From IMG/VR virus record IMGVR_UViG_3300044540_000246: 62,169 nt of DNA. One strand, given 5' to 3'. A model generated the notes under the pieces. It did no database searches. It was not told where the DNA came from and worked only from the letters and a program-made list of their open reading frames with translations. This stretch comes from an uncultured virus (IMG/VR IMGVR_UViG_3300044540_000246) (taxonomy: Duplodnaviria; Heunggongvirae; Uroviricota; Caudoviricetes). A program made the position numbers and the translations under genes. This document shows positions 8,125 through 56,557 of this stretch, one piece after another (positions within the stretch are counted from its first letter, which is position 1; each line of letters opens with the position of its first letter).

Positions 8125-8131
8125 CGTTAGG
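8125..8131 (+). promoter_or_regulatory. CGTTAG(A/G) motif, representative copy; putative element-specific promoter
   Basis: Copies at 5629, 8125, 11874, 13126, 18790, 19336, 28431, 47187, 53957 and 58885, with variant AGTTAGG at 30488. All lie 15-80 nt upstream of + strand starts. Confidence 0.65.
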
Positions 8132-8168: not shown

Positions 8169-8261
8169 ATGCCCGCAACCCGTGACCCGAAAGGCGCCCG
8201 CCGCGGAGGAAAGAGCTCCGGCGGCCAGTTCACCGCGAACACGTCCGGAAAGGCCGGCATC
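8169..8261 (+). repeat. Leader A coding repeat, copy 1 (others 11918-12010 and 13937-14029)
   Basis: About 90-bp near-identical sequence at the 5' end of three unrelated ORFs. Copies 1 and 2 also share upstream CGCGTTAGGG...TCAGCAGC...GTGAAGG. Confidence 0.95.
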
Positions 8262-8723
8262 ACAGCACCAAGCGTGCCGCCGATACCGGGACCTGCGCGT
8301 CTTGCGGATGCGGGCCAGGGAAGCTACGGCATGACGCGCGAACAGTTTGAAGCGTTCCTCGCCGCCCCTCCCCCTGCTCTTGTCAGCATTTCGGTCGAGC
8401 AGCTGTCCGACCGCCGCGACCGCACCCTTCTCCTGGGGTACACCGTTAACCGTGACACCTTTCACGTATACCTCCAAGACGGACTCCTGTGCCGTCACGT
8501 CTACTCGTCCGTGTTCCCGGATCGGTCAATCGCGGGATACGAGAACGAGGCTGGGGCGGAGCTTGTCGTTCAAGAGTTGGTCCCGAACAAGCGCGTGTAC
8601 CCCCAGTACTGCGACCCGGAGTTTGTCGGGCTCCTCCGGCAGGCGGGCGTCACGGTGCCGTTCACTAACCACAGCGATCCGGGGCGGGAAGGGCCGTTCT
8701 TCGCGAAGACCATGGAGGGGTAG
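8169..8723 (+). CDS. Leader-A-tagged hypothetical protein
   Basis: ATG 8169 after GAAGGG; MPATRDPKGARRGGKSSGGQFTANTSGKAGI, a Pro-rich linker, then a globular domain. Confidence 0.8.
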   Translation: MPATRDPKGARRGGKSSGGQFTANTSGKAGITAPSVPPIPGPARLADAGQGSYGMTREQFEAFLAAPPPALVSISVEQLSDRRDRTLLLGYTVNRDTFHVYLQDGLLCRHVYSSVFPDRSIAGYENEAGAELVVQELVPNKRVYPQYCDPEFVGLLRQAGVTVPFTNHSDPGREGPFFAKTMEG

Positions 8724-10241: not shown

Positions 10242-10604
10242 CCAGTTCGCCCACCGACCCCACCGTTCGTACGCGCGAGTCAGCGACCCGTTCGCACAGC
10301 CATAATCGCGGCGCGGGAACCGCAAGGCGGGACCCGACCAGGCCGGACAGCGGCGCGGCTTGTCATAGTCGGCGCGAAACACCAGCGGGAGACCGGCGGA
10401 GACCCACGCTCGGACCGGCCACGGCCACGAGGGGCGGCCGTCCACGGTCGACTGTGACGCGGGCTTGCTACGAAGCAGAGCATCCATCCTGGTCGGCACG
10501 AAGCGCGGCCCCTTCTTTTGAACGTGGCCGCTCCAGCGTATAGGGCAGTGCCGACACCGGCTCCGCCTGGCGGAGCGCGCACCGACGGAGCCGATGTCGG
10601 CGCC

Positions 10605-11327
10605 ATGGACTGGTTCGGGCAGCTGTGGGCTTGGCTCACTGTCGCGCCTCAGGTGCCTGAATGGTGGCTTGTCGTTCCCGCTGCGGTCGTCGGCGTTGCC
10701 GGCGTTGCCGTCCCCGCAACGTGGCGCGCGACGCGTCTGCTCGAGGTCTACGTGCACGAGACGGGGCATGCGCTCGTCGGAATGGTGACCGGACGAAGGG
10801 TTGACGCGATCTACCTCGACAGCAACGGCGGAGGCATGACCACGACAGCCGGCCGCGAGCACGGCCTGGGCCGCATTCTCACCACATTCGCCGGATACCC
10901 GGCACCTGCCCTTGCTGGGCTCGGCATCTTCGTGGCCCTCTCGGCAGGGCATGCACGCTGGGCTATCGCGGGCGCCGCAGTCGCCTCAGGCCTCCTACTT
11001 CTCGCCCACCGGTCGTGGCGCGGCCTTCTTGTCACCGGCATCATCCTCGCGTCGGCGACAGCGCTCGCCGCCGCACCCGTTACCGTCGCGGCAGTTGCTC
11101 TCGCCTGTGTCGGCGGGTATTTGCTGGCCGCATCTCCTCGCGGAGTCATCGACCTTCATCGGGCTCGACGTCAAGCGCGCGCGACCGGGATGCCCGCGCA
11201 CTCCGACGCCGACACGCTGGCCGGACTCACTCTCGTACCTGCGCTGATATGGGAGCTGGTCTTCCTGGCTGTGTGCGCAGTCTGCTTCTGGTGGTCGGTT
11301 TCAATGTATCTGTCCGCGATCGCATAA
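10605..11327 (+). CDS. M50B-like intramembrane zinc metallopeptidase
   Basis: HETGH in hydrophobic context, AGYPAP, SDADTLA, several TM segments; probably leaderless (CCGATG-N8-ATG). Confidence 0.85.
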   Translation: MDWFGQLWAWLTVAPQVPEWWLVVPAAVVGVAGVAVPATWRATRLLEVYVHETGHALVGMVTGRRVDAIYLDSNGGGMTTTAGREHGLGRILTTFAGYPAPALAGLGIFVALSAGHARWAIAGAAVASGLLLLAHRSWRGLLVTGIILASATALAAAPVTVAAVALACVGGYLLAASPRGVIDLHRARRQARATGMPAHSDADTLAGLTLVPALIWELVFLAVCAVCFWWSVSMYLSAIA

Positions 11328-11827: not shown

Positions 11828-11917
11828 ACGCCCGCCTGCGGGTATCGACGCGCCGTCCGACCACCCCGTACCGCGTTAGGGCCCCACAGTCAGCAGCCAC
11901 GTGAAGGAGACCTCCCG

Positions 11918-12481
11918 ATGCCCGTAACCCGTGACCCGAAAGGCGCCCGCCGCGGAGGAAAGAGCTCCGGCGGCCAGTTCACCGCGAACACGTCCGGGAA
12001 GGCCGGCATCGCCGCCCCCGCCGCAGCCCCGGCGAGGAAGCCCGCCCACGGCGGACGGCTCCTGCGTCACACCGCAGAAACCCGCGCCGAGCTGACCGCG
12101 ATGCTGCACAAGAAGTTCGACCAGGGCTACTTCCAAGGCTCCTGGGGCCGGATCGGTCGCACCCAGCACCCCGTCTTCGACGCACTCACCCCCGCCAGCC
12201 TCTGTGGCCGCTACACCACCGGCACGACCAGCGCCGAACCGCACGTGCGGGAGAAGTTCTGCCGCGAGTGCCGCAGCCTGTTCCGCGACGCCGTCACCAG
12301 CTGGCTCAAAGGCAAGGAAGGGCAGTTCCTTTCCGACCTCGAAGACGGCGACCCGGAAGCCGCCCGCAACAGCCTCGACTCCATCCAGCGATTCCGCAGC
12401 CTTCTCGCCGCCAGCCCGAAGACATGGGACCTGTCGCTCCGAGGCGTCGACACTGACGAGCTCCCGCCTCGCCGGCGCTAA
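11918..12481 (+). CDS. Leader-A-tagged hypothetical protein
   Basis: MPVTRDPKGARRGGKSSGGQFTANTSGKAGI followed by a domain with SLCG...FCREC; GAAGGAG RBS. Confidence 0.8.
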   Translation: MPVTRDPKGARRGGKSSGGQFTANTSGKAGIAAPAAAPARKPAHGGRLLRHTAETRAELTAMLHKKFDQGYFQGSWGRIGRTQHPVFDALTPASLCGRYTTGTTSAEPHVREKFCRECRSLFRDAVTSWLKGKEGQFLSDLEDGDPEAARNSLDSIQRFRSLLAASPKTWDLSLRGVDTDELPPRRR

Positions 12482-12823: not shown

Positions 12824-12895
12824 ATGAACTCACACTTACAGGACCCGAAGACCGGAAAGATGGCCGGCTCGACCGCCGGCCGCGACAACGTCCCC
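12824..12895 (+). repeat. Leader B coding repeat, copy 1 (others 13141-13212, about 18820-18894 and about 19397-19470)
   Basis: LQDPKTGKMAGSTAGRDNVP is identical in copies 1 and 2; the others read IQDPKTGRLAGSIGCGRD and LQDPTTGKMAGSAAG. Confidence 0.92.
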
Positions 12896-13120
12896 GTTGC
12901 ACCCACGCCCGCGCCGGCGCCGTTTCCCTCCGGCACTCGAGTCCGGCACGCCGACACACCAGCACCTTCCGGGTGCCGGTGGTGCGGTCACGAGCAGCGC
13001 GGCCACGGCCACTCGTTCGTACGCAGCGTCGGCGGCCACCGATGGGAGCCACCGACCATGGCGCAGCGCCTTGCCCGCATGCGCGCACGGCGCGCAGCCC
13101 GACTATCCGCGCAGCGCTGA
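12824..13120 (+). CDS. Leader-B-tagged small Cys/His protein
   Basis: MNSHLQDPKTGKMAGSTAGRDNVP followed by PSGCRWCG...H...H.WEPP; GAAAGG RBS. Confidence 0.75.
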   Translation: MNSHLQDPKTGKMAGSTAGRDNVPVAPTPAPAPFPSGTRVRHADTPAPSGCRWCGHEQRGHGHSFVRSVGGHRWEPPTMAQRLARMRARRAARLSAQR

Positions 13121-13140
13121 CGTCGCGTTAGAGCCCTGCC

Positions 13141-13914
13141 ATGACCTCCTACCTGCAGGACCCGAAGACCGGGAAGATGGCCGGTTCGACCGCAGGCCGC
13201 GACAACGTCCCGGCTACGCCCGGCCAGGCTCCCGCCACGTTCGCCAACAACGCGCCGGCGGCGCACATCCCCGAGCTCGCGGACCTGTACGACGCATTCG
13301 TCGCCGAGCACAACCGGCCGCCAGTCATCGGACTTGACCTGGACGGCACCACCGCCGACATGGTCGCCAACCTTCGCGGTCGAGTAGCCGAAGCTCGCGG
13401 CATTGCCGCCGACCGGGCCACGTTGCCCGACCCGGACGACTACTTGATGTGGCAGGGCAGCGCCCCCTGGTTCGCCTCCAAGGAAGACTTCCTCGGCCAT
13501 TTCCAAGCAGCCGAACGGGATGGCATGTACCGAGAGCTCGGAACCTACGAGGGCGCAGTCGAGGTCCTCCGCACCCTCGCTGAGCATGGATTCGTTATCC
13601 ACGCGGTCACCGCTCGCAGCGCCACCTACAACAACGACACGCAGGCATGGCTCGACGCCCAGGGCATCCCGGCAATCCAAATCCGTAACCCCGGATTCGA
13701 CAAGCACACACTCGGCGACGTCGACGTGTTCATTGACGACGCTCCTCACGTCATTGACGGGCTCGCAAACGCCGGCCGGTCGGTCGTCGTGTTCGAGCAG
13801 CCCTACAACGCCGACAACCTGCCGGCAGCAGACCATGTCAAGACCATGACCCGCTGGGAGGTTCAGCAAGTCGCCAACGCGCTACGCGCCCTCCTGAACA
13901 CCGGTCACCAGTAA
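13141..13914 (+). CDS. Leader-B-tagged HAD-family 5'(3')-deoxyribonucleotidase-like protein
   Basis: Leader B, then IGLDLDGT (HAD motif I), VTAR, FIDDAP and QPYN. Confidence 0.85.
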   Translation: MTSYLQDPKTGKMAGSTAGRDNVPATPGQAPATFANNAPAAHIPELADLYDAFVAEHNRPPVIGLDLDGTTADMVANLRGRVAEARGIAADRATLPDPDDYLMWQGSAPWFASKEDFLGHFQAAERDGMYRELGTYEGAVEVLRTLAEHGFVIHAVTARSATYNNDTQAWLDAQGIPAIQIRNPGFDKHTLGDVDVFIDDAPHVIDGLANAGRSVVVFEQPYNADNLPAADHVKTMTRWEVQQVANALRALLNTGHQ

Positions 13915-13936
13915 GCGCCCAAGAAAGGGAAACCCC

Positions 13937-14419
13937 ATGGCCACGACACGTGACCCGAAAGGCGCCCGCCGTGGCGGAAAGAGCTCCGGCGGCCAGTTCA
14001 CCGCGAACACGTCCGGCAAGACCGGCGTCGCCGCGCCAGGCGCAGCACCTACCGACTTCCTCGGAACCGTCCGCGAGGGGCTCGCAGCCGCGCACAAGCA
14101 GGTCGAAGTGCATGAGGCCCAGCTGTACCGCCACGGCCATGCCGGCGTGACCGCCCTGGCCCGGCAGATGTTCCCGACCGCCGCGACTATCGAACTCGTC
14201 GACGCAAGCGATTCCGGAGGCTCACCGTACTTCCTCGCTCACCGCATCCTAGACGCGGCCGGCGACGAGCTTTGGAGCGTCGAAGCCAGCTACGGCAGGA
14301 GCGACGCCATCCAGGATCTGCTCGGCGAGTTCACCCCCTACTTCGACCGTCACATCCCCGAAAGCGAACGCCGCCACACGTATCTCGGCAACGACGTCTG
14401 GGAAGTCACTCTCGGCTGA
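13937..14419 (+). CDS. Leader-A-tagged hypothetical protein
   Basis: MATTRDPKGARRGGKSSGGQFTANTSGKTGV; GAAAGGG RBS; starts 22 nt after the previous gene. Confidence 0.8.
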   Translation: MATTRDPKGARRGGKSSGGQFTANTSGKTGVAAPGAAPTDFLGTVREGLAAAHKQVEVHEAQLYRHGHAGVTALARQMFPTAATIELVDASDSGGSPYFLAHRILDAAGDELWSVEASYGRSDAIQDLLGEFTPYFDRHIPESERRHTYLGNDVWEVTLG

Positions 14420-15077: not shown

Positions 15078-15857
15078 ATGGACGCACGGATCGCAGCACA
15101 GCTCGCAGCCCTCCCTCTCAAGGAGATGGACTCTGCCCTGCTCACCGTCACCTTGCTCGCCGAGACATCCGCAGCCATCCCCGGCAGCGTCAACGTCATC
15201 CGCGACGCCGCCGCGACCGCCGCCTGGGTTCACCGCAAGCACACCCGCGCGAACCGCGCTGGCCTGCCTCGCACCCCCTACATCGAGCACCCGCTCCGTC
15301 TCGCGGTCCGCCTACTCCGCTGGGGTGTCCGCGATACCGACGTTATCGTCGCCGCGCTCTTCCACGACACCGTTGAAGACAACCCATATGACCTCGCCCG
15401 ACTCGCCGACGCGCCCGAAGGGCTTACGGAGGCAGACGCCCGGACTTACGCGCTGCGCTATCTCGAGGAACAGTACGGCCCGATCGTCGCTCGTACCGTC
15501 GCGGCTGTCACCAACCCGCTACCCAGCGGGAACCGCCGCGACCGGGCGACTCGCAACGGTGAGTACTTCACCCATGTCGCGCACGCCATCGCCGACCCGC
15601 GCGCCTACCTGGTCAAGGTCGACGACGTGTTCGACAACGCTCTGAGCCTGCACCACACCGCCGAAGGCCTCGGCCCGGTCGGCACCGCACGCCGGGCGCA
15701 GAAGTACCTCCCGCTGCTCGACCTGCTCGCCGCCCGCATCGGAGACGATGACATCGACGGCCTACTCCCCCTCGCCGGTCAGGTTCAGATCTCTGCCGGC
15801 TTGGCCGCCGGAAGGGTCCGCCTCGTCGAGCTCGCCGGCGGGGCGCCGACCGCCTGA
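15078..15857 (+). CDS. HD-domain hydrolase, RelA/SpoT hydrolase (Mesh1/small alarmone hydrolase)-like
   Basis: H...R...PYIEHP, AALFHDTVED, VT, VKVDDVFDN. Confidence 0.82.
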   Translation: MDARIAAQLAALPLKEMDSALLTVTLLAETSAAIPGSVNVIRDAAATAAWVHRKHTRANRAGLPRTPYIEHPLRLAVRLLRWGVRDTDVIVAALFHDTVEDNPYDLARLADAPEGLTEADARTYALRYLEEQYGPIVARTVAAVTNPLPSGNRRDRATRNGEYFTHVAHAIADPRAYLVKVDDVFDNALSLHHTAEGLGPVGTARRAQKYLPLLDLLAARIGDDDIDGLLPLAGQVQISAGLAAGRVRLVELAGGAPTA

Positions 15858-20116: not shown

Positions 20117-23100
20117 GTGAATACCACTATGCCCATTCCGGGTCGCCTTGCCTTGGCTGTCCGACGCACGCACCGCGCCCTCGCGGCGACACTGTCGCTC
20201 CTATTCATCGCGACAGCGCTCGCAGTCCTCACCCCGGCCGCTCCCGCTCGCGCAGACTCAACCCTCTCCCTGAGCTCGGAATCGTCCGGATCGATCCTCG
20301 CCGGCGAAACGACCACCATCGACATGGTCGCGACGAACATTAGCGCGGGCACAAATCTCTACAACTTGACGTTCACGCACGAGCTTCCGACGGGCGTGAC
20401 GTACGTACCAGGCTCCACCGCCCCGACCCCGATCGGTAACCCTCGCATCATCGTCGTGACAACCACGCCGGACCCACTGTTCCCCCTCGACACCGTCGAC
20501 CACCAGGTCCTCATCTGGTCCAACGTGTCCGACCTTGTCGCCGGCTCCTCGTCGTCGCTGTCATTCGCAGTCCACGCCGACCCGACCCTCTACCCAGTGG
20601 GCTCCACCTTCGACAAGACTTCGAACGCATACGCCAACACTGACCCGCGATACCTGCCGAAATTCAACCCCACCACCGGCGCAGCTATCACCGGAGCCAC
20701 CAGCTACACGCACACGGACACGGTGTCGCCCCAGAACACCCAGGTTGCCGCTATCGACATCCAGAAGACGAACCCGAACCCAGAATCTGAACTCGTCCGC
20801 GGAGTCCACGCACAGACGAGCACGTTCACTATCACCGCTCGGAACACCGACCAGGCTGACACCGAAAGCGTCGTCATCGTCGACTACCTGCCCGCCGGTC
20901 TCGAGTTCCTCGGCTGCGGCGGCATCGACAACTCCTCGGCCCGCGAGTTCCCCGGAGCTCCCGCGCTCACCGCGACACCGACTCCCGCGAACTGCCTCAC
21001 CCCGAACAGCGTGTCCACAGTCCTCGATCCGGCCGGGCAGCCGTCAGGTATCTACACGCGCATCGAATGGCAGATCGGAACCCTGACCGCTGCGGCACCG
21101 ACGAACGTCCGCACGATCCGATACGCCGTCGCCGTCCCCCTCTACGCGAACACGATGACGTTCCCGAGCGGCACGCCGACAGCTGCCAGCCTCACCCAGA
21201 CGGCGAACCTGGATAACAACACCGGGTCGTCCACCCGCCACATTGGCGCGGCCGCGTCGTTCCGTAACGCAGTCACCGCAACCGGAACCTACACCGGCCC
21301 GGTTGCGCCGACCGCGTCCAGCACGGTCACCTCCTCAGCGTCGAACACCGTCCGAGCAATGGACATTGCCGTCACCACGACTGCCTCATCCTCAAACTTC
21401 GTCGCAGCTCAACCGTTCACCTACACGATGCTTGTCCGAACCGGCGAGTACGCCTCCGCATCCGCGATCACCCTGACCGACACCGTCCCCAACGGCATTT
21501 GCCCCCTCGTTCCCGCCGGCACAACCATCTTCGGAACGCTCCCCCCGGACTGCGCCGCAGTCGGCACCGTTTCGGGCGCGACGATCAACTCCGTCACAGC
21601 CAACCCTGACGGAACGTTCACCATCGACTTCGCAATCATCCCAGCAACACTCACACCGAACAGCACGATCAATGTTCAGTACACCGCCCTGTTCCGAGCG
21701 AACTACACCGGCAGCGAAGACCCGACCGCCTCCGGCGACACCTTCGCCACGGGAACGTCCATCTCGGGGACCACCACCCCAGTCTCCGATACAGGTTTCA
21801 CCACAACAGAGTTCGCCTTCGATGGGTCAGGCACTTCGCACGCCTCCTCGACTCCCACAATCGAGAAGCTCGTCCTGCCCCGTCAAGGCATCGCCAACGT
21901 CAACGAATGCCGAAACGCGTACGGCCAGTATGTTGCCGACGCCTCCACCATCCCCGGCGGCCAGTTCGTCCAAGGCGACCGGATCTGCTTCCAGCTGAAA
22001 ATCAACTTCTCCGACACCGTCGACACCCGCAACGCACAAATCACCGACTTCGTACCCGTCGGAACGTCCTACGAGAGCTACACGCTCGGAACCCCGACGG
22101 AAGGCTCCACCGTCCCCGCCGGGCAAGTCTCCACCCCGAGCGACCCAGACGTACCCGTCTGGCGCCTCGGCGCGCCCCTTGGAACCAACCCGGACAACCT
22201 GTTCATCGCCCGCGGATCGGTGCTGGTCATGTTCGTGTCGGCGATCGTGGACGACCCCTCCCCGACCACGTCCGTCGACATCACCGCCAACCTCATGAAG
22301 TACTCTCAGGAGAACACATCAGGGCAGGTGTACGCACTACGAGCGCAAGCCGACTTCGCCGTCGCCCCCGCCCCAACTCTCGGCATCACCAAGGGCATCA
22401 GTGCCGTCAACGGCTCCGCGAACACGCTCCCCTACCCCAGCTCAGGAACGCTCACCGGCGGCCAATATGCAGACTTCGTAATCGACGTCAACCATCAGGG
22501 CAGTCAGGCGGCCGGCAACGATCAAGACATCACCGAACACACCGTTTGGGATGCCCTCCCCGAACCGCTCACCTGCGCCAACATCACCAATATCAGCGCC
22601 GCAGGAACATGCACGGACAACTTCGCAGGTTTCGCAGGCAGCGCGAACGTTGGCCGTAGCGCAATCACCTGGACCGTCGCTACCACTCTCACCGCCGGCT
22701 CTGTCGCCGACAGCCTCACCTACCGCGTCACGCTACCCAGCCCAGGCCTAACCCCCGACACGGACTACATCAACGCCACATCCGTCACCTCATACCGCAT
22801 CGACACAACTTCAGGTAGTAGCGCCTTCTACCCCGAGGACTCCCTCGACCTCGGCGCCCAAACGTCATGGAACGTCGCCGCAGCGAACGCAACAGCCACC
22901 ATCACCACGCCAGCCGTCACCGTTGCGAAGAGCTACACCACACCAGCCGTCACCTCCGCGAACACGGCAACAAACGCCGTCGCCGGTGAACTGATCACGT
23001 ACACGTACTCAGTCACCATCCCGGCGCGCACCACCGTCTACAACGCCACCCTCGACGACTCGCTCCCCGCCAACCTCGTCAGCCTGCCGAGCACCACAAC

Positions 23101-26100
23101 GTCCACGACAGTCCCGAACGGGGTCACGACCTACACGGCAGGCGTCGGCTACTCAACCGCGTTCGAAGCGAGCTACACCAACAACACCGACACCGCTCAA
23201 ACGTTCACCACCACTCTCGTCGGCGTGCAGGTAGCCCCAGCGTTCACCGGCACGAGCATCGCCAACACGGCCACATTCCGCAGCGACAGCGCCCCGACCG
23301 GCGGCACCGCCCTCACCCCGGTGACGGCCACATCAACCCTTCCGGTCATTCGCCCGCGCCCGACCATCTCCAAGACGGTCACCCCGTCAACGGTCTCTGC
23401 TGGCCAGACGGTCACGTACACGCTCACCGCAAACAACACAGCGGGAAACCCTGCGGGATACGACAGCATCATCATCGACTGTCTCCCGACCGCGATCACC
23501 TTCCTCGCCGACGTCACACTGCCGTCAGGAGTTACTCGCAACGCCCCCACGCCGGGAACCGGAACGGGGGCGGGTCAGAACGGCTGCGCCAACACGACCA
23601 ACCTCATCCAGTACAACCTTGGAACAATCAACCCCGCCACCCCGATCGTCATTCAGTTCTCAGCCACCGTTAGCCCCACCGCCGCCGGCCTTGCAACCCA
23701 GACCAACACGGCACGGGTTCTCACCTCCACGCTTGACAATGGAACCCGCGACGCAACTATCGAAGGCCTCTTCACATCAACGACCGCGAACGCGACCACC
23801 ACAGTCACTGGCGCCACAGTAACGAAGACGACGACCGCACCCACCGCAACCGTCGGCGGGACAGTCCCCTACACCATCACCGCCACAATCCCCGCCTCGG
23901 TGAACTTCTGGAACGCAGCCGTCATTGACACAGTCCCCGCCGGGATCCTCCTCAATCAAGCGACCACCGTCGTCACCTGCACTGTGGCCGTGACGCTTGC
24001 GGACTGCGCGGCCGACCTCCCGGCAGGCGGCGCACCCCTGACCGCAACATCCACCCAAGCTGGCTGGTACCTCGGCAGCATCACCGCGAACCCGGCCGTC
24101 CGAACGGTCACAATCACAGTCGACGCAACCGTCCGCGACACGCCTGGCAACGTCCTCGGCGGAACGCTAACGAACACAGCCAAACTCTCCTGGAGGAACG
24201 CCGCCGGTAGCGCGCCAGCGAATGCCGGCTCCACGTTCGACCGCAGCACAACGGTCAACGCCGGCTCCACCGCCGTGACAACCATCCAAGAGCCGCAGCT
24301 CTCCATCACGAAGACGAACTCCGACACGACCCCCAACCCGGGCGACACGTTCACCTACACGGTTCGAGCGACCAACGCGAACAACGCAAACACTTCAACT
24401 GCATACAACGTCACCGTGACCGACACAGTCCCCACCGGTGTTGTCGTCAACCCGAGCTCAATCGGCAACGGCGGAACCATTGCCGGCGCCGGAGCAAACG
24501 GTGGAGGCGTCATCACCTGGCCGAACCTCACCATCGCCCGCAACGTTCAACTCGACCTCACCTACGAGGCAACCCTCGCCCCATCCCCGAGCCTGACGGC
24601 CGCCGCACTAACCAACACGGCACGGATCACCACTTACGCATCCCTACCGTCCGGGGGGCGCACCTACACGAACCCCGTACCGACCGCCACGTCGACCGTC
24701 ACGCCGCAGTTCCCCTCGGTGGACATCTCTAAGGCCACCCCCGGCGGCACGCTCGCTTACGCCGGAACTCCCTTCACCTGGCGCCTCACTCTCGCGAACG
24801 ACACCGACGCCGCACCGACCGCAGGCGCCTCAGTCGCAGACGTGCTCCCCAAGCACTGGAACTACGTCACAGGTTCCGCACTCGTCACCGTCGGCTCGTC
24901 TACGACCCAGATTGACCCGTCGGTAGCGACCGTCAACAACGTCCAGACGCTCACGTGGGCAACCCTGGGCGGCATCGACCCCGGTGGGACAATCCTCATC
25001 ACCTATCAGGCCACGCCCGCGACCGACGCCCTCGTCGACCCCGGCTCGGGTACTTCCATCCCCCACACCAACACATTCTCGGCCGTAGCAACCGACGCGA
25101 CCGCCGCGACCGGAAATGCGACCGGAAACTACGCAGCAGGACCCGCCTCGGCCAACGCCTTCATCGCATCAGCTGACCTCTCCGTCACGAAGGCGAGCCC
25201 AGGAACCCTCATCGCAGGCCAGACCACATCGAACGCTTGGACCATCACCGTCCGGAACGCGGCCGGTTCGGATGTCGCCGTCGGGCCCTTCCAGGTAGTC
25301 GACACGGTAGATGCGCTACCGGCGGGTGTCACAGTCGGCCAGCCGGCAGGTAGCGGCTGGAGCTGCACTGCACCGACCGTCGACGGCGACTTCACCTGCA
25401 CGCGCACCGACGCCAACGACACCCTCGCCGAAGGAGCATCCTTCCCGGCAATCGCCGTTCCAGTCTCCGTCGCAGCCGACGTACCCGCCGCGACCGAAAT
25501 CCTGAACACCGTGTCCGCCACGGCCCGAACGTCCGACCCGAACCTGGCGAACAACTTCGACGACGCCATCCAGACGACCACCGTTCAGTCTGACCTGGCG
25601 ATCGGGAAGTCGACCTCGGGGACGCTCCTCGCCGGACAGACAGCGACCTGGCAAATCGACGTCCGCAACCTGGGCAGCTCGGTAACCAGCGGCATCACCA
25701 CCGTCACCGACACGATCCCCGCAGGCGTCACCAACGTCTCCGCTTCCGGGATCGGGTGGAGCTGCGCGCCGCCCGCAGCAGGAAACCTTGTCTGCCAAAC
25801 GTCGACGTCGTTCCTAGGTTTCGCGCCAGCCTTGATTGTTACCGGAGACATCGACTCGAGTGTCACCGGGGATGTGACGAACGTTGCAACCGTCACCGGC
25901 ATCAACCCTGACCCGACGCCGTCAAACAACACCGCCTCCACGACCGACCCGGTCGGCACGGACACGACACTCCTGCTGCAGAAGTCGCTCGATAGTGGGA
26001 CCGTGATCGCAGGGAACACCGTCCAATACCGACTTGACGTGAACAACGCAGGCCGCGCCGACGCGCGCAACGTCATCATCGTCGACCCGCTCCCGAACGG

Positions 26101-28423
26101 GCTCACCTTCGCCGGCAACGTCACATCGATCGTCGGCACATGGTCATGCACGGAAACGAACTCGACGCCTTCCACGGTCACCTGCATCCTGTCCGGAACC
26201 CTGCCCGCGTCGGGGTCAGACACCGCATCCGTCTCGTTCGCAGCGCTCGTGCCCTCTAGCCTGCCGCTCGGCACACAAGTGGAGAACACCGCCACCGCTT
26301 CCGCGGACAATGCGACAGATGTCAGCGACTCCGCCACCGGGGAACCGCTCGGCGAAAGCGACCTCGCGCTCGTGAAAGCCCTCACCTCCTCGTCGCCGGT
26401 CGCTGGAGGCACGGCCACGTACCGGCTCGACGTCACCAACTACGGCCCGACCGACAACGTCGGCAGCATCACCGTCACCGAAACTCCGCCCGCCGGGTTC
26501 CGAATCACCGCCATCGCCGGTTCGGGTTGGACATGCTCCACCATTGCCGGAGGTGCGTCAGCGACCTGCTCGTGGGACACCGGACTGGTAGCCAACGCGT
26601 CCGCAACCGCCATTACCGTGACGGCAACGATCGCGCCCAGCGTGTCGGCCGGCGAGCACATCAACACCGCGTCCGCTGCCGGCATCAGCGACTACGCCGA
26701 CCCGAACCTGGCCAATAACACCGACGACGCCGCCGCAACCGTCTCCACAGACTCGGCGCTCACGATCGTCAAATCAGGTGAAGCGACCCTCATTCCCGGA
26801 ACGGCGACGTCGTACACGATCACCGTCACAAACGCCGGCCCCTCCAACGCGACCGATGTCCTCCTCGCAGACCTGCTCCCCCCGGGCATCACCGCGACCG
26901 CACTCACCGGCTCCGGCTGGTCCTGCTCCCTCGCAACCGCAACGTGTGAGATCGCGTCCCTTCCAGTCGGTTCCAGCAGTATCCTTGTCGACGCAACAGT
27001 TGCCGCGAACGTTGCGGACGGAGCTCAGCTCACCAACACGGCGACAGTCGAGTGGGGGGATTCGTCCGGCCGGGACTCCGCCACCGCAGACTTCACGGGG
27101 ACAGCGGCAACCTCCGCCGACTTGTCGCTCGTCAAGACCGCCACTTCCCCCGAAGCGACCGCCGGTACGACGGGCACCTATGAGCTGTCAGTCGCGAACA
27201 ACGGCCCCTCGGACGCAAGCGGTCCGATTGTCATCACCGACACCCTTCCGGCCGGACTGACCTACGTTAGCGCCACATCGGCCGGAGACGTCTGGACATG
27301 CGCGCCTCTCGCCGGCGACCCGCAGATCGTCGAATGCACCCTCCCCGACGGGATTGCTGCCACAGGCACAGCTCCGCTGCTCACGATGGAGGTCCTCTTC
27401 GCGGCAAACCACGCCGGCGGCGACACGATCAACATCGCATCCGTCGACTCCCCAACCGATGACCCCAACCCGGCCAACGACAGCAGCACCGCCACCGTGA
27501 CCGTCAATCAGAGGGTCGACCTGGCCGTCACCGAGACGCTCCTCGACGGCACCGTCCGAATCGGGAACACGGTCACGTTCGGCTACGAAGCGACCAACAA
27601 CGGCCCCTCCGCAGCTAACGACGTCTCTGTGCGCATCCTTCTCCCTGCCGGCCTCGCAGATGTTGATACGGCTGGTTCCGACCCTCGATGGTCGTGTCAA
27701 ATCTCTACCGTTTCCGGTAGCAATCTGACCGAGATCGTGTGTCTGCTCTCGGGAACATTGGGGGTGGGCGAAACCGCACCGCCGCTCACCGCATCCGCCC
27801 GCATCGAGGCGATCGGCTTCCCCGAGCTCATCACCGAGGTGACCGTCGAAACGCCTGCGCAAGAAATCACTTACGTGAACAACGCAGACGGCCACGCCTA
27901 CCCGGTACCGCCCCTCGTTGGCCTCAACATTGCCAAGACGAACAACGGGCCGGTCCAAGCAGGGGAACAGGCCCACTACATCATCACCGTCACGAATCTT
28001 GGTCTCACGTCAGCGCCTGACGGATTCACCGTCATCGACACACTGCCTGAAACTCTCACCTTCCGTTCCGCCGAAGGTGGAGGTGCGGCATGCTCAGCTA
28101 GCGGACGAGTCGTCACCTGTCTGTTCACTGATGAACTTGCCGTGAACGCTTCTGTGTCGGTCAACATCTACGTCAATGTTGCCCTCTCCGCAGTCGGCGC
28201 GATCACGAACACCGCTGCCGTCTCGACTGACAACGAGAACCTGAGCGGCTCAACCGTTGTCGCCTCAAACACGGTCATCGCTTCCGCTCCGGCACCAGGC
28301 CGGCTGTCGACCGCCGGAGCTTCCGCTCTGACGGGGACAATCGCGCTCCTTGCGGTGAGCGCGCTGATAGTCGGGTCCGCCCTCCTCATCATGGGCCGAA
28401 GGCGGCGTCGACACGTCGCGTGA
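20117..28423 (+). CDS. Giant secreted/cell-wall-anchored repeat protein (DUF11/Ig-like, probably isopeptide-forming adhesin)
   Basis: Signal peptide ending PARA; roughly 20 Thr-rich repeats (DLxxxK...GxTxTYTxTVxNxG...DxLPxG...GWxC...NTA...DPxxxNN); C-terminal LSTAG, a TM helix and RRRRR. Confidence 0.88.
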   Translation: MNTTMPIPGRLALAVRRTHRALAATLSLLFIATALAVLTPAAPARADSTLSLSSESSGSILAGETTTIDMVATNISAGTNLYNLTFTHELPTGVTYVPGSTAPTPIGNPRIIVVTTTPDPLFPLDTVDHQVLIWSNVSDLVAGSSSSLSFAVHADPTLYPVGSTFDKTSNAYANTDPRYLPKFNPTTGAAITGATSYTHTDTVSPQNTQVAAIDIQKTNPNPESELVRGVHAQTSTFTITARNTDQADTESVVIVDYLPAGLEFLGCGGIDNSSAREFPGAPALTATPTPANCLTPNSVSTVLDPAGQPSGIYTRIEWQIGTLTAAAPTNVRTIRYAVAVPLYANTMTFPSGTPTAASLTQTANLDNNTGSSTRHIGAAASFRNAVTATGTYTGPVAPTASSTVTSSASNTVRAMDIAVTTTASSSNFVAAQPFTYTMLVRTGEYASASAITLTDTVPNGICPLVPAGTTIFGTLPPDCAAVGTVSGATINSVTANPDGTFTIDFAIIPATLTPNSTINVQYTALFRANYTGSEDPTASGDTFATGTSISGTTTPVSDTGFTTTEFAFDGSGTSHASSTPTIEKLVLPRQGIANVNECRNAYGQYVADASTIPGGQFVQGDRICFQLKINFSDTVDTRNAQITDFVPVGTSYESYTLGTPTEGSTVPAGQVSTPSDPDVPVWRLGAPLGTNPDNLFIARGSVLVMFVSAIVDDPSPTTSVDITANLMKYSQENTSGQVYALRAQADFAVAPAPTLGITKGISAVNGSANTLPYPSSGTLTGGQYADFVIDVNHQGSQAAGNDQDITEHTVWDALPEPLTCANITNISAAGTCTDNFAGFAGSANVGRSAITWTVATTLTAGSVADSLTYRVTLPSPGLTPDTDYINATSVTSYRIDTTSGSSAFYPEDSLDLGAQTSWNVAAANATATITTPAVTVAKSYTTPAVTSANTATNAVAGELITYTYSVTIPARTTVYNATLDDSLPANLVSLPSTTTSTTVPNGVTTYTAGVGYSTAFEASYTNNTDTAQTFTTTLVGVQVAPAFTGTSIANTATFRSDSAPTGGTALTPVTATSTLPVIRPRPTISKTVTPSTVSAGQTVTYTLTANNTAGNPAGYDSIIIDCLPTAITFLADVTLPSGVTRNAPTPGTGTGAGQNGCANTTNLIQYNLGTINPATPIVIQFSATVSPTAAGLATQTNTARVLTSTLDNGTRDATIEGLFTSTTANATTTVTGATVTKTTTAPTATVGGTVPYTITATIPASVNFWNAAVIDTVPAGILLNQATTVVTCTVAVTLADCAADLPAGGAPLTATSTQAGWYLGSITANPAVRTVTITVDATVRDTPGNVLGGTLTNTAKLSWRNAAGSAPANAGSTFDRSTTVNAGSTAVTTIQEPQLSITKTNSDTTPNPGDTFTYTVRATNANNANTSTAYNVTVTDTVPTGVVVNPSSIGNGGTIAGAGANGGGVITWPNLTIARNVQLDLTYEATLAPSPSLTAAALTNTARITTYASLPSGGRTYTNPVPTATSTVTPQFPSVDISKATPGGTLAYAGTPFTWRLTLANDTDAAPTAGASVADVLPKHWNYVTGSALVTVGSSTTQIDPSVATVNNVQTLTWATLGGIDPGGTILITYQATPATDALVDPGSGTSIPHTNTFSAVATDATAATGNATGNYAAGPASANAFIASADLSVTKASPGTLIAGQTTSNAWTITVRNAAGSDVAVGPFQVVDTVDALPAGVTVGQPAGSGWSCTAPTVDGDFTCTRTDANDTLAEGASFPAIAVPVSVAADVPAATEILNTVSATARTSDPNLANNFDDAIQTTTVQSDLAIGKSTSGTLLAGQTATWQIDVRNLGSSVTSGITTVTDTIPAGVTNVSASGIGWSCAPPAAGNLVCQTSTSFLGFAPALIVTGDIDSSVTGDVTNVATVTGINPDPTPSNNTASTTDPVGTDTTLLLQKSLDSGTVIAGNTVQYRLDVNNAGRADARNVIIVDPLPNGLTFAGNVTSIVGTWSCTETNSTPSTVTCILSGTLPASGSDTASVSFAALVPSSLPLGTQVENTATASADNATDVSDSATGEPLGESDLALVKALTSSSPVAGGTATYRLDVTNYGPTDNVGSITVTETPPAGFRITAIAGSGWTCSTIAGGASATCSWDTGLVANASATAITVTATIAPSVSAGEHINTASAAGISDYADPNLANNTDDAAATVSTDSALTIVKSGEATLIPGTATSYTITVTNAGPSNATDVLLADLLPPGITATALTGSGWSCSLATATCEIASLPVGSSSILVDATVAANVADGAQLTNTATVEWGDSSGRDSATADFTGTAATSADLSLVKTATSPEATAGTTGTYELSVANNGPSDASGPIVITDTLPAGLTYVSATSAGDVWTCAPLAGDPQIVECTLPDGIAATGTAPLLTMEVLFAANHAGGDTINIASVDSPTDDPNPANDSSTATVTVNQRVDLAVTETLLDGTVRIGNTVTFGYEATNNGPSAANDVSVRILLPAGLADVDTAGSDPRWSCQISTVSGSNLTEIVCLLSGTLGVGETAPPLTASARIEAIGFPELITEVTVETPAQEITYVNNADGHAYPVPPLVGLNIAKTNNGPVQAGEQAHYIITVTNLGLTSAPDGFTVIDTLPETLTFRSAEGGGAACSASGRVVTCLFTDELAVNASVSVNIYVNVALSAVGAITNTAAVSTDNENLSGSTVVASNTVIASAPAPGRLSTAGASALTGTIALLAVSALIVGSALLIMGRRRRRHVA

Positions 28424-28508
28424 CGGCCGGCGTTAGAGCTCAACTATTGGCCGCCGCCCGGAACTCAGATCGACTGCCGGGCGACGCGACCTCGAAGGGG
28501 GAAGCTTC

Positions 28509-28988
28509 ATGCTCAACCGAAACCGTCAACTCCGCCGGGACCGTCAAGGGCGTTTCGCCCGCTCGCATGCTGTCGCGACCGCGACCCCGAACACCCCCTT
28601 CCCGGCACCCACCCTCCTCCCGGCGGCGTTCGACTCACCTCGCGCAGCGTTCCAGGCCGAGCTCGAAGCTCACCTGGCTCGGGCGACCGCCAAAGCGATC
28701 CGCGAGCTGACCGCATTCGAGACCTACGAGGGGCCTCATCTCATCGTGACCGTACGGACACCTTCCAGCACCGCTCGCGTTTCCGAGATGGAGGAAGGGA
28801 TCTGGGAGGCGGTCACGTCACCGCATACCGTCGGCGCCGCACCGCAGCTCGGCGGACCTTTCCGCACCAAAGCCGAAGCTCGATCCTGGGCCGAGAGGAC
28901 CGCGCTCGACGTCCACGTCGCTCGCACTCATGAGCGAGTCATCGCCGCAGCCCTTGACGGTCTACGCGCCGGTTCCGCTCACGCCTGA
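28509..28988 (+). CDS. Hypothetical protein with RDxxGRF-type leader
   Basis: MLNRNRQLRRDRQGRFARSH then a Pro-rich linker; GAAGGGG RBS; CGTTAGA at 28431. Confidence 0.7.
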   Translation: MLNRNRQLRRDRQGRFARSHAVATATPNTPFPAPTLLPAAFDSPRAAFQAELEAHLARATAKAIRELTAFETYEGPHLIVTVRTPSSTARVSEMEEGIWEAVTSPHTVGAAPQLGGPFRTKAEARSWAERTALDVHVARTHERVIAAALDGLRAGSAHA

Positions 28989-29011
28989 AACGCTCGCCGG
29001 AGGAAGCCGGC

Positions 29012-29836
29012 TCAGGCGAGCAGTCCCGCAACCGCCAACCGGTGTGCCACCTGCGAATGCAGATCCTCCACCGCGCCACTATTGTGCAGAACCGCGTCAA
29101 ACGGCCAACCGTCCAGAGCCGTCTCGCTCGGGTGATCGTTCGCAGGCCCCCTGCCCGGACGAACCACCCGCCACACCTGCCCACCGAAACGCTTCACGGC
29201 GGCGGCTTCGTTCGGGAAGCGCGCGTCGGTCACGAACACTCGCGCACCATCGGGCAGGTCTCGGTATACCGCGTCAACCCAAACATCTTCGTAGAGCAGG
29301 TCACGGGACGCCTCCGCACCCATCCGCTGCATGAGCGGACGCATCTGCGGGACCGCGTTCTTCGCACCTTCCCACCCGAGCTCGTCAACAAGATCGCGGA
29401 CGGTCTTCCCCTCGACAACGATCGGGTTCAGGCGATACAGCGCCTCTCGAATGAGGTCCCCTGCGCTGATGCGTAGCCAACCTTCAGCTGCGAGCACAGC
29501 TCCGGCAGTGTCCTTACCTGACTGGCCATACCCAGACAAGGCAATCACGGTCAGCCGCGGCACCAACTTGCCTGAAACCAAGGCGAGCACGGGGCGCTCG
29601 AGCTTCTCGGCCACCCGAACCACTTCGACCGAGACCGGATCTTCCCGCCAGCCGGGCAGGACGACGACGCCCTCCAAGGTGCAGACGGCCTGCAGTGCCT
29701 GGCCCAACAGCTCCTGCGGCGACGAACCGCTCGAGTCCAAGCGGACGGCGACGTGCCGCCCACCCGCAGTCACAACGTCAAGAGCGTTCGCCAAGTCCTC
29801 AGCAGTCTGCGTCGTTCCAGTAACGAGGAGTTGCAC
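29012..29836 (-). CDS. Deoxynucleoside monophosphate kinase (phage-type) with an N-terminal extra domain
   Basis: P-loop SGYGQSGKDT, RPLMQRMG.E, VTDARFPNE, HPSE; the N-terminal VVLPGW segment resembles DUF4406. Confidence 0.88.
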   Translation of the reverse strand: MQLLVTGTTQTAEDLANALDVVTAGGRHVAVRLDSSGSSPQELLGQALQAVCTLEGVVVLPGWREDPVSVEVVRVAEKLERPVLALVSGKLVPRLTVIALSGYGQSGKDTAGAVLAAEGWLRISAGDLIREALYRLNPIVVEGKTVRDLVDELGWEGAKNAVPQMRPLMQRMGAEASRDLLYEDVWVDAVYRDLPDGARVFVTDARFPNEAAAVKRFGGQVWRVVRPGRGPANDHPSETALDGWPFDAVLHNSGAVEDLHSQVAHRLAVAGLLA

Positions 29837-29915
29837 GAATGAGCCTTCCGCCGACGATGGGTTCGATTAATGCAACCCATCGGCCCGCCGGAGCCACCGC
29901 GAGACCGGACGGTCG

Positions 29916-30531: not shown

Positions 30532-32043
30532 ATGCCTGCCGCACGCGAGAATCGCGGCGCCAAGCGCTCCGGCGTCAGCATCGGAGGGCAGTTCGCGCCA
30601 GACCGGTCAGGCATCCGAGGCGTTCGGGCCCGTCCCGAAGCGCCCACTACCGCTTCCCCCTATGAGGTCGGCGAGGCTTCCGAGCTGGCCGACATTGACA
30701 TCTGCACCGTCTGCGAAGGTCCGATCCTCCCCGCAGACGAGGGTGCCTGTCAGGCCTGCGAGCAAGCCGCCTACGAAGCGGCCCTCAGTAGCTCGCTACC
30801 GGACGACGTACTCGAACGTGCGCTCGCTGAAGACGCAACTGCCCAGCCGCCCGTCCGGACCGTTTCCGAGTTCGAGCTGCCACCCGAGCTCGACACGACC
30901 GTCTCCTCGCTCGCGCGGGCCGTCGTCGACGGCGACCCTGCCGCCGCAGCGGACCTGCGCGCGCAACTCACCGAACAGATTGCTCGCCTCCCAGTCCAGG
31001 CCATCCCGGCGCCCTTCTCCAGCGACCCCGTAGATCCGGCCGAGCTCCCCCATACGGCAGGCATCTACATCATCACCGGGCCCGACGCCTCCTATGTCGG
31101 CCTAGCTAAGGACATCCACCAACGCTTCTACAACCGCGACTACGGCCATCTGACAGAGAACAACCACTGCCGGTCCCGCTTCATCCTCGACGGGGATGAC
31201 TACGAAATTCGAGTCATCCCCGTCGACGCGAGCGAAGACGGCCGTGAGGCTCAGCAGTACGCGCTCGCCGAAGCAGAAATTCGCGCCTACGCCCAACTGC
31301 ACGCCGCCGGCCACTATCCGAACAACGCCTTGGCGACCCTCGGCCGAGTCGGTGACGGGAAGGTCATTCCGATCGTCGCCTGTGACCTGGCGACCGGCGA
31401 GTACACCTTCTACGAGTCGACGATGGCCGCCACCCGCGACACCGGCTCAACCTCGATCGCTGCCGCGCTGCACGGATACCAGCGCATCGCCGCCGGCCGG
31501 GTCGTGCGGTGGGCGACGTTCGGCGAGCAGGAGCTCCTTCTCGACAAGACCGACCGGGCGGGGAAACTCACCGGCGAGATCGTCACGAAGGCTCTGTCCA
31601 TTCAGCCGCGCTCGGTCGACTGGGGCGAAACTCGCGAGGGTGGGCGCGGAGCTGACTTCTCGTGGTCCGGTGGCGCCCTCGCCGCCGACGACATCACCAC
31701 GCTACGGCCCTATGTCCGCGGCGTGGGCTCATATAACAAGAACCGCCCTACCAGCGGCTACTACGGCGTGCGCAGCCTTGGCGACGAAAGCAAGTGGGAA
31801 GTTCGCATCAAGACCGGGCCCGGCCCGCGCGACGCGATCACTAAGACGTTCGCTGACGCGCACGAGGCGGCCGTCTACCGGGAGTCCTATATCACCGACA
31901 ATGGCCTGCAGGCATATAACAACGGGGTGGGGGCCTCGAACGCAGACGCGCTCAACTTCCACTTCGGAGCAAGGCAGTTCACCGGATGGGACTCTTCGCC
32001 CGGCCGTCGCGCTGCCGCCGACGGGGCCGCTGCCGCCGCCTAA
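30532..32043 (+). CDS. Leader-tagged GIY-YIG endonuclease with Zn ribbon and C-terminal AP2-like domain
   Basis: AGGAGG RBS; leader RENRGAKRSGVSIGGQFAPDRSG; CTVC...CQAC; GIYIITG...YVGLA...RF...E...N; TSGYYGV...WEVRI...TF...EAA.YR. Confidence 0.75.
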   Translation: MPAARENRGAKRSGVSIGGQFAPDRSGIRGVRARPEAPTTASPYEVGEASELADIDICTVCEGPILPADEGACQACEQAAYEAALSSSLPDDVLERALAEDATAQPPVRTVSEFELPPELDTTVSSLARAVVDGDPAAAADLRAQLTEQIARLPVQAIPAPFSSDPVDPAELPHTAGIYIITGPDASYVGLAKDIHQRFYNRDYGHLTENNHCRSRFILDGDDYEIRVIPVDASEDGREAQQYALAEAEIRAYAQLHAAGHYPNNALATLGRVGDGKVIPIVACDLATGEYTFYESTMAATRDTGSTSIAAALHGYQRIAAGRVVRWATFGEQELLLDKTDRAGKLTGEIVTKALSIQPRSVDWGETREGGRGADFSWSGGALAADDITTLRPYVRGVGSYNKNRPTSGYYGVRSLGDESKWEVRIKTGPGPRDAITKTFADAHEAAVYRESYITDNGLQAYNNGVGASNADALNFHFGARQFTGWDSSPGRRAAADGAAAAA

Positions 32044-36773: not shown

Positions 36774-36875
36774 GCCCGGCCCATCGGTTCAGGGCCACCT
36801 CCGACCCGCAGTCCGACCGAACCGATAAGGCACCGGAAGACCGGAAAGACACCGAGGAGCGAGGCACTCACCGAC

Positions 36876-56328: not shown

Positions 56329-56557
56329 GGGGCACCTCCGGTTCTCTTGTCATCTTGCTTCTTCGGCCAGTCCCGACCGAAGTACGTAAACAGTATAGCA
56401 TCCCTGTACGGCAATGTGTAGTGCCGGCAGGTCCGCTCCGCCTGACGCTTCGCACACGCATCGGGAAGGCCGCCCGCCACCCGACGGTTCACCCATAGGG
56501 GAACTTGCGCATACCGAGAACCACGCTAGAGTCAAATTGACACACCGAGGAGCGAGA

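Follow-up and report, generated by a model that had tools for sequence, protein, structure and literature searches.

Conserved N-terminal leader peptides on unrelated proteins of a virus-like element: probable portable tags and a possible address for shell loading

Why would a virus-like element begin several proteins, unrelated in the rest of their length, with the same short peptide, and is it the peptide or the nucleic acid encoding it that is being kept? This question is raised by the 62,169-nucleotide stretch of the uncultured-virus record IMGVR_UViG_3300044540_000246 (IMG/VR) that we analysed as a whole and call the window. It makes up about half of a 124,169-bp parent contig from freshwater metagenomes, and we read the element as large, virus-like, possibly a phage-plasmid, of a high-G+C actinobacterium. 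A group of its genes opens with a leader of one of two families, A or B: a hydrophilic Gly/Pro/Ser/Lys-rich motif of ~24-34 residues, followed by a Pro/Ala-rich spacer. These leaders are very probably portable peptide tags that are translated, held by purifying selection, and moved between genes and related replicons. Because an N-terminal peptide set on a flexible spacer in front of unrelated bodies is the anatomy of an address label, we infer that one common partner most likely reads the tag as an address or docking label.

Eight genes in the window carry one of two leaders

Profile hidden Markov models (HMMs) built from the leader copies and run over all 1,160 stop-to-stop frames of at least 25 amino acids in the window recover exactly eight copies, four of family A (starting at 8169, 11918, 13937 and, in a divergent form, 30532) and four of family B (12824, 13141, 18820 and 19397); we name each gene by its family and start (Table 1). 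The eight E-values run from 2e-17 to 1e-23, and the next best frames reach only 0.25 and 0.04. Every leader begins at residue 1 of a gene on the + strand. Independent gene calls give identical starts and lengths (184, 187, 160 and 503 residues for A_8169, A_11918, A_13937 and A_30532; 98, 257, 131 and 190 for B_12824, B_13141, B_18820 and B_19397), and a purine-rich ribosome-binding stretch lies upstream of seven of the eight starts. The family A core reads R-[DE]-x-[KR]-G-A-[RK]-R-x-G-x-S-x-G-G-Q-F-[TA]-x-[ND]-x-S-G-x-x-G-[IV], and that of family B [YH]-[LI]-Q-D-P-x-T-G-[KR]-[ML]-A-G-S.

Beyond residue 40 the tagged proteins have almost nothing in common. When 12 proteins were compared, only one of 66 pairs was related, and that pair consists of the orthologues B_19397 and P0009, the latter a metagenome protein from outside the window. 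Residues 61-224 of B_13141 match Pfam NT5C (E 3.2e-12), and the 20 phage homologues listed of its 23 matches align only from residue 62-63 onward, so those listed are without the leader. Residues 40-95 of B_12824 match phrog_20506 (E 3.3e-18) from profile position 60 on; because this match starts past the leader, the leader of this gene is not part of the matched region. Residues 177-218 of A_30532 give a weak match to Pfam GIY-YIG (E 0.024, under the curated cut-off), and a protein-collection search returned no homologue of similar length for this gene. The remaining bodies are orphans in Pfam, PHROGs and NCBIfam, A_8169 among them, and PADLOC gave nothing usable; the tag itself has no match in these three databases, and again PADLOC yielded nothing of use. 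These family scans covered 72 open reading frames (ORFs) of the window, with PHROGs run on 36.

Selection acts on the leader peptide

A sequence-only reading of this locus had proposed that the leader copies diverge at synonymous sites and that the amino acids are under selection. Rechecked alignments show that the codon lists behind that proposal are correct for both families. In family B, the copies of B_12824 and B_13141 differ only silently over the 20 codons LQDPKTGKMAGSTAGRDNVP (codons 5-24), in which six base differences fall in five codons (TTA/CTG, GGA/GGG, GGC/GGT, GCC/GCA and CCC/CCG). All six are synonymous and none is non-synonymous (Nei-Gojobori; S=15, N=45), which gives a proportion of synonymous differences (pS) of 0.40 and of non-synonymous differences (pN) of 0 (binomial P 2.4e-4); six random substitutions spared the peptide in 50 of 200,000 trials. 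The family A core is also kept as protein while its codons vary, as the same reading had stated. Over codons 4-29, A_13937 differs from A_8169 or A_11918 by four synonymous changes (ACC/ACA, CGC/CGT, GGA/GGC and GGA/GGG/GGC) and one non-synonymous change, so that four of five differences are silent; the sole replacement, A29T, lies directly after TSGK. Random trials gave at most one amino-acid change in 4,797 of 200,000. This second test is weaker because the three close copies are 88-94% identical as DNA, and family A on its own has little statistical power.

More distant comparisons extend this picture within a small sample (eight window copies and three outside proteins). Over a 13-codon core, B_12824 and B_19397 differ by five synonymous and two non-synonymous changes (P 0.013); B_13141 and B_18820 show no significant silent excess (five synonymous, eight non-synonymous, P 0.21). 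Third codon positions hold most of the base differences in 12 of 13 copy pairs. Family B copies fall to 64-69% identity as DNA, yet 8-9 of 12 core residues are kept, and the divergent A_30532 leader, 53-54% identical to other copies as DNA, retains 16-17 of 34 residues. In a strain variant of the A_11918 leader from sequencing run X6, five of six coding differences are silent third-position changes and one turns Thr25 into Met; this variant possibly includes sequencing errors, because the depth is only 2.1.

The conservation stops where the leader stops. In family B, the spacer (codons 25-42) is not conserved, with pS 0.58 and pN 0.44, and the contrast between core and spacer is significant (Fisher test, P 0.0055); the spacer directly after the leader thus evolves almost freely. 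A comparable contrast separates leader and body in the one orthologous pair: P0009 (197 residues, found by the leader B profile) is 60% identical to B_19397 overall, with 40 of 50 residues identical in the leader part (80%) and 78 of 147 (53%) in the remainder. The proposed purifying selection on leader amino acids is therefore supported both by a silent excess that lies in the core and not in the spacer and by the persistence of the peptide in divergent copies and in other records. The accompanying argument against neutral duplication is also supported, by the better-kept leader in orthologues and the contrast of core and spacer.

The same data bear on the idea that the peptide has no function and is simply carried along by gene conversion or by a mobile 5′ cassette, in which a promoter, 5′ untranslated region and start region spread together. 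Some features would fit it: A_8169 and A_11918 are alike over ~50 bases upstream of the start, including a promoter-like word described below, and the close identity of the three family A copies fits recent copying or conversion. A passenger would not, however, confine its silent excess to the core and leave the spacer free, nor would it retain its peptide in family B copies that are old (pS 0.4-0.54), nor would it be better kept than the body between orthologues. In addition, the upstream regions of the family B copies do not align past the short word, the spacing of that word to the start varies from 15 to 61 bases, and B_12824 and A_13937 do not have it. This explanation fails on the data, and we regard it as very unlikely.

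RNA structure does not explain the conservation

Covariation of RNA structure had been raised as the alternative to selection on the peptide, and when it was examined in both families it did not explain the conservation. The alternative supposes that the first codons overlap an RNA or DNA element, such as a folded 5′ region or a site for protein binding, and the conserved G+C-rich stretch can indeed form hairpins (folding terms of -15 and -16 kcal/mol). However, the RNAalifold covariation term for the window copies is 0 for family B and +1.12 for family A; compensatory pairs number 0 of 22 in family A and 2 of 10 in family B, the latter alongside broken pairs; the divergent leader copies break predicted base pairs; and the variation shows the three-base period of coding sequence. 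We consider such an element extremely unlikely.

The promoter-like word is CGTTAGRGC, which has five exact copies in the window, each on the + strand at a distance of 15-78 bases before a gene start (beginning at 11874 (11874..11882), 13126, 19336, 28431 and 53957), together with one-mismatch variants that include those at 8125, 18790, 47187 and 58885. It precedes five of the eight leader genes (two of these copies with one mismatch), and exact copies also precede an exonuclease gene and ORF 28509. With up to one mismatch the word is not enriched in the window overall (32 found, 23.9 expected). We regard it as promoter-like and as separate from the tag; it may serve as a -10-like element, possibly recognised by the sigma factor encoded in the window. 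Since its spacing varies and two of the leader genes lack it, the peptide module is more than a piece of a promoter cassette.

Two further observations concern genes that follow this word. In gene 13141 only ~6 bases separate the end of the copy at 13126 from the ATG, with no recognisable ribosome-binding site, and from this arrangement the mRNA may be leaderless. The second gene, a 159-residue + strand ORF (28509-28988), lies 78 bases downstream of the exact copy at 28431 and has a basic, Arg-rich start with R-D-x-x-G-R-F-A, followed by a Pro/Thr/Ala spacer. Its anatomy is that of the leaders and its start loosely resembles D-P-K-T-G-K-M-A of the family B core, so this start may be a third type of tag; it escapes the HMMs of both families. 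For a putative R-D-x-x-G-R-F motif of phage proteins, a literature search returned no paper, and the paper on polyvalent proteins lacks the string GRF.

Leader copies beyond the window are few

Among several billion public proteins, the tag occurs only in this replicon and in three records, all singletons from metagenomes. Besides P0009, these are P0010 (200 residues, on a 28-kb Joint Genome Institute contig), in which 19 of 24 leader residues are identical to B_19397 and the body is unrelated, and P0014 (166 residues), whose family A-type N-terminus is closest to that of A_30532 and is followed by a different body (E 9e-4, leader A profile against 1.84 billion representatives). The leader profile search also returned P0011-P0013, which we discount as repeat artefacts. 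With leader A as query, a word-indexed search of 5.8 billion protein clusters gave only three proteins, all of the window itself.

Searches of DNA collections were similarly sparse. The leader region has no near match in phage or plasmid collections, tblastn of both leaders against phages gave nothing at E up to 10 (low-complexity filter on), and degenerate DNA patterns for leaders A and B had 0 matches in viral contigs. A wider family B pattern gave nine matches in metagenome contigs, all internal to unrelated frames, and five in genome contigs that are non-actinobacterial and presumed to be chance matches. Searches of viral contigs for loci related to P0010 or B_19397 confirmed nothing, and no frame in 80 viral DnaE loci (1.45 Mb, at most 43% identity) resembles a leader (best E 3.2, family A; 0.52, family B). 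Atlas look-alikes of leader A scored below 0.9 and are leads at most, and leader B had no usable one.

The way the leaders behave as assembly repeats hints at, but does not prove, additional copies beyond the window. In an independent freshwater run, X3, contigs break at leader copies (11955-11968, 12841-12870, 13272-13304 and 13987-14005), and the summed depth over the family A core is 60.6 compared with ~10 nearby. In one X3 contig the match to the window begins only with the second half of leader A, and the letters preceding it encode, in frame, a different basic N-terminal half.

The leaders are hydrophilic, disordered and unlike export signals

Within the first 45 residues, 78-89% are G, P, S, T, K, R, D, N, Q, E or A, and the maximal 15-residue Kyte-Doolittle mean over residues 1-60 is 0.21-0.89 across nine proteins. 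Over 30 residues, family A carries a net charge of +4 to +5 and is basic, and family B carries +1 to +2 and is near neutral. AlphaFold2 models A_13937 residues 1-40 without secondary structure, with a predicted local distance difference test score (pLDDT) of 41-44 in a poor model (mean pLDDT 46); B_19397 with P0009 also gives a poor model (mean pLDDT 39.5) in which the leader is coil. The leaders are thus modelled as disordered or coil at the extreme N-terminus. A Pup-like reading of G-G-Q in family A was dropped, as the motif is missing in family B and the Gln is internal.

With hydropathy at or below 0.89, the leaders contain no membrane or signal segment and are not Sec, Tat or lipoprotein signals, which consist of a hydrophobic h-region after a basic n-region (with a twin-Arg for Tat). 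Obvious signal peptides are seen, by comparison, on the lipoprotein at 8966 and on the surface protein at 20117. A non-classical signal that sends proteins out, or into a recipient cell, by a dedicated machine has some appeal for an element that encodes envelope proteins (the giant surface protein, the subtilase with fibronectin type III (FN3) repeats, the lipoprotein and membrane proteins), and substrates of several secretion systems do carry N-terminal signals. We nevertheless judge it quite improbable: the h-region is missing, no secretion ATPase or channel family is found among the scanned window ORFs, and the bodies are nucleotide and DNA enzymes.

Could the leader instead set the lifetime of its proteins? 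As a degron or timing tag it would let a host AAA+ protease or the pupylation-proteasome route remove an early protein set together. A disordered N-terminal tail with conserved Lys and a spacer behind it would be suitable, an M50B-type membrane metalloprotease gene lies inside the cluster, and phage early proteins with terminal degrons are known. The leaders, however, match no degron class that could be named, and a motif of 24-34 residues kept across replicons exceeds the typical degron size; moreover, variation in the residues beside the Met means that recognition does not fall on the free N-terminus. We therefore find a degron improbable. This and the three preceding explanations (export, passenger, and RNA or DNA element) are less likely than the two that follow, loading into a shell and docking to a hub.

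Known address peptides point to a shell as the possible reader

Two groups of known peptides resemble the leaders most closely. The T-even phage internal proteins are a diverse set whose sole common part is the capsid targeting sequence (CTS) (PMC3012670); as in the leaders, the CTS of T4 (on IPI-III and Alt) is a short, portable N-terminal peptide and the only common part of diverse, fast-changing accessory proteins (PMC3012670). The leaders share this trait, as a common N-terminal peptide on otherwise unrelated proteins (8 of 8 N-terminal, 1 of 66 body pairs related). They have no sequence likeness to the T4 peptide, which is ~10 residues long and is removed by the prohead protease at an L/I-x-E type site. 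They also differ from it in their 24-34 conserved residues, the Pro/Ala spacer, the coexistence of two families, and the lack of head genes in the window. At the leader-spacer border we find no conserved [LI]-x-E or other common motif; the leaders end x-x-P and a variable Pro/Ala run follows.

The second group consists of the cargo-loading domains (CLDs) of actinobacterial Family 2 encapsulins. These N-terminal domains are disordered, have a high content of Pro, Gly and Ala and a single short conserved motif (GPxGxGTxxL), and load the cargo into the shell (PMC11550324; PMC8346489), to whose inner surface they bind at the three-fold axis (PMC11550324). The CLDs of 2-methylisoborneol synthase and cysteine desulfurase are, like the leaders, N-terminal, disordered, Pro/Gly/Ala-rich and actinobacterial, with a short Gly-rich motif before an unrelated enzyme body (PMC11550324; PMC8346489), and both are poorly conserved outside the motif (for the CLDs, PMC11550324). 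What reads them is known: the interior surface of a shell with the HK97 fold, which is also that of phage heads (PMC11550324; PMC8346489). However, alignments of both leader families do not contain the consensus GPxGLGT/GPxGxGTxxL; D-P-K-T-G-K-M-A-G-S-T of family B is only loosely like the CLD motif (P-x-T-G...G-[ST]), and family A shares nothing with it. Family 2 CLDs are also usually longer (31 to more than 200 residues) and repetitive, compared with 24-34 residues in the leaders, and no encapsulin shell gene lies beside the leader genes among the 72 window ORFs.

Other shell-directed peptides are more distant. The cargo-loading peptides of Family 1 encapsulins and the N-terminal encapsulation peptides of bacterial microcompartments also place a short address and a flexible linker on unrelated enzymes and are read by a shell. 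The microcompartment peptides are amphipathic helices; the leaders are Gly/Pro-rich and modelled as coil. The Family 1 peptides, unlike the leaders, are mostly C-terminal with a TVGSL-type motif (PMC8346489).

We therefore favour, at a probability of roughly 0.35, a reading in which the leaders load cargo into an HK97-type shell or virion head. Each tagged protein would consist of a short, disordered, hydrophilic N-terminal motif, a Pro/Ala-rich tether, and a globular body that differs from gene to gene; the likely reader would be the inner face of an HK97-type shell, that is, the element's own virion head or an encapsulin-like shell, and the tagged accessory enzymes would be loaded into it as cargo. 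We prefer this reading because capsid targeting sequences are the only well-studied N-terminal peptides common to a virus's diverse accessory set, because actinobacterial N-terminal Pro/Gly/Ala-rich domains are a proven loading signal for HK97-fold encapsulin shells, and because phages are known to package enzymes for injection. Phages are described as packaging enzymes and injecting them along with their DNA (PMC5512222).

Several observations weigh against shell loading. The tagged genes sit among replication and nucleotide-metabolism genes, and since the promoter-like word of the leader genes also precedes an exonuclease gene, early or middle genes would fit better than head cargo. Nor would one typically expect a nucleotidase in a head, or a homing-type nuclease, should A_30532 be one. 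The leaders are not followed by a conserved protease site, and family B resembles the encapsulin motif only in part, as judged by eye. No capsid, portal, terminase, prohead protease or encapsulin family is found among the 72 window ORFs scanned. From its gene content the element is no more than probably a phage, given the plasmid-like DnaE together with the sortase-type surface protein, the lipoprotein and the membrane proteins.

Nearly as likely, and possible in our view, is that the leaders dock to a cytoplasmic hub, tethering accessory enzymes to the element's clamp, single-strand-binding protein, polymerase or DNA, in the manner of clamp-binding motifs or of the T4 complex that synthesises deoxynucleoside triphosphates. 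The position of the tagged genes between those for DnaE, an HD phosphohydrolase, exonucleases, GyrB/GyrA and a deoxynucleoside monophosphate (dNMP) kinase suits this idea, as do the bodies that could be identified, which act on nucleotides or DNA (NT5C and the weak GIY-YIG match), and the strongly basic family A would be apt for contact with DNA or an acidic partner. Hub-docking peptides usually consist of a motif and a flexible spacer ahead of a domain; as in the leaders, beta-clamp-binding motifs and the partners of the single-strand-binding protein tail set a short motif on a disordered terminal tether common to unrelated proteins of DNA metabolism. The beta-clamp consensus, a Q-L-[SD]-L-F-type penta- or hexapeptide, is nevertheless absent: Gln is conserved in two settings only, G-G-Q-F-[TA]-x-[ND] (family A) and [LI]-Q-D-P-x-T (family B), and neither Q-F-T-A-N nor Q-D-P-K-T fits it. 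Because family B is near neutral, plain electrostatic binding of DNA does not cover both families. Furthermore, we identify no hub protein in the window, and all 11 known copies are N-terminal, where docking motifs of this kind are often C-terminal or internal.

The leader peptides are new. The tag resembles the T4 capsid targeting sequence or the encapsulin loading domain and is a member of neither, since it lacks both a protease site and the encapsulin consensus and has no shell gene near it. A more specific form of shell loading, which we offer as a conjecture more likely wrong than right, is an undescribed cargo-address code in which two interchangeable N-terminal motifs on Pro/Ala tethers would load a varying set of nucleotide- and DNA-directed enzymes into the HK97-type head of an actinobacterial virus, by docking to the shell interior as the domains of Family 2 encapsulin cargo do. 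If true, it would provide a mechanistic link between encapsulin cargo loading and the packaging of phage internal proteins, and a portable tag for loading proteins into actinophage particles. More generally, a shared address peptide reveals the accessory proteins that a mobile element treats as one group, and it provides a way to track down the machinery that recognises it. Should that be a virion or encapsulin-like shell, the tag would define the injected or encapsulated enzyme set in a freshwater actinobacterial virus lineage without a cultured member; should it be a replication hub, the tag would define a new docking motif. The leader peptide is short enough for direct testing by reporter fusion.

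Gene setting of the tagged genes

The window is 67% G+C and no tRNA gene was found in it. Its DnaE is ~50% identical to that of a Streptomyces phage and 47-54% identical to DnaE of actinobacterial plasmids. The genes for replication and DNA handling encode DnaE, DnaG, GyrB, GyrA (with an intein), NurA, a DnaQ-type exonuclease and a phage-type Cas4/RecB exonuclease; further genes encode a von Willebrand factor A (VWA) protein and membrane proteins, and the PHROG matches include phrog_2590 as well as phrog_20506. Table 1 lists the tagged genes and the neighbours discussed here.

Table 1. Leader genes and other located features of the window
Feature	Position	Strand	Residues	Description	Leader HMM E	Gene call
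A_8169	8169..8723	+	184	leader codons 1-34 (8169-8270), Pro-rich spacer, orphan body	2.4e-23	P0003, same start
A_11918	11918..12481	+	187	leader 11918-12019, Ala/Pro spacer, orphan body; AGGAG ribosome-binding site upstream	1.2e-23	P0002
B_12824	12824..13120	+	98	leader codons 1-24 (12824-12895), Pro/Ala spacer, small Cys/His body	8.4e-21	P0005
B_13141	13141..13914	+	257	leader 13141-13212, spacer to ~residue 55, 5′(3′)-deoxyribonucleotidase (NT5C/HAD) body	6.8e-20	
A_13937	13937..14419	+	160	leader 13937-14038, orphan body	1.6e-22	P0001
B_18820	18820..19215	+	131	divergent leader codons 1-25, orphan body	6.1e-19	P0007
B_19397	19397..19969	+	190	leader with two extra residues after Met, Ala/Pro spacer, Cys-rich C-terminus	2.6e-17	P0008
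A_30532	30532..32043	+	503	divergent leader 30532-30633; directly upstream of gyrB	2.1e-20	P0004, same start
Lipoprotein	8966			obvious signal peptide		
M50B-type membrane metalloprotease	10518-11327			inside leader-gene cluster		
HD phosphohydrolase	15078-15857					
Giant surface protein, sortase-type	20117-28423	+	2,768	signal peptide, at least 10 DUF11 repeats, Cna-B-like domains, C-terminal membrane anchor and Arg tail		
T4-type dNMP kinase	29012-29836	minus		Pfam DNMK, E 8.9e-10		
Secreted subtilase	40721-43618	minus		six FN3 repeats		
Class-II glutamine amidotransferase	55579-56328	minus				
Sigma factor	56414-57340			element's own		
Amidoligase	58948-61536					

Several features of this setting deserve mention in their own right. 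Selfish nucleases cluster at the topoisomerase genes: the GyrA gene (36189-40655, +) contains an intein whose Hint and LAGLIDADG domains are recognised by Pfam, and the tagged gene with the GIY-YIG-like match lies directly upstream of gyrB. Two + strand ORFs, 28930-29334 and 29331-29870, are probably spurious, the true gene there being that of the minus-strand dNMP kinase. The giant surface protein and the FN3 subtilase are unusual cargo for a phage-like element. Finally, the deoxyribonucleotidase of B_13141, the HD phosphohydrolase, the dNMP kinase, the glutamine amidotransferase and the amidoligase together hint that the element may exclude or hypermodify a DNA base, in the manner of known phage systems.

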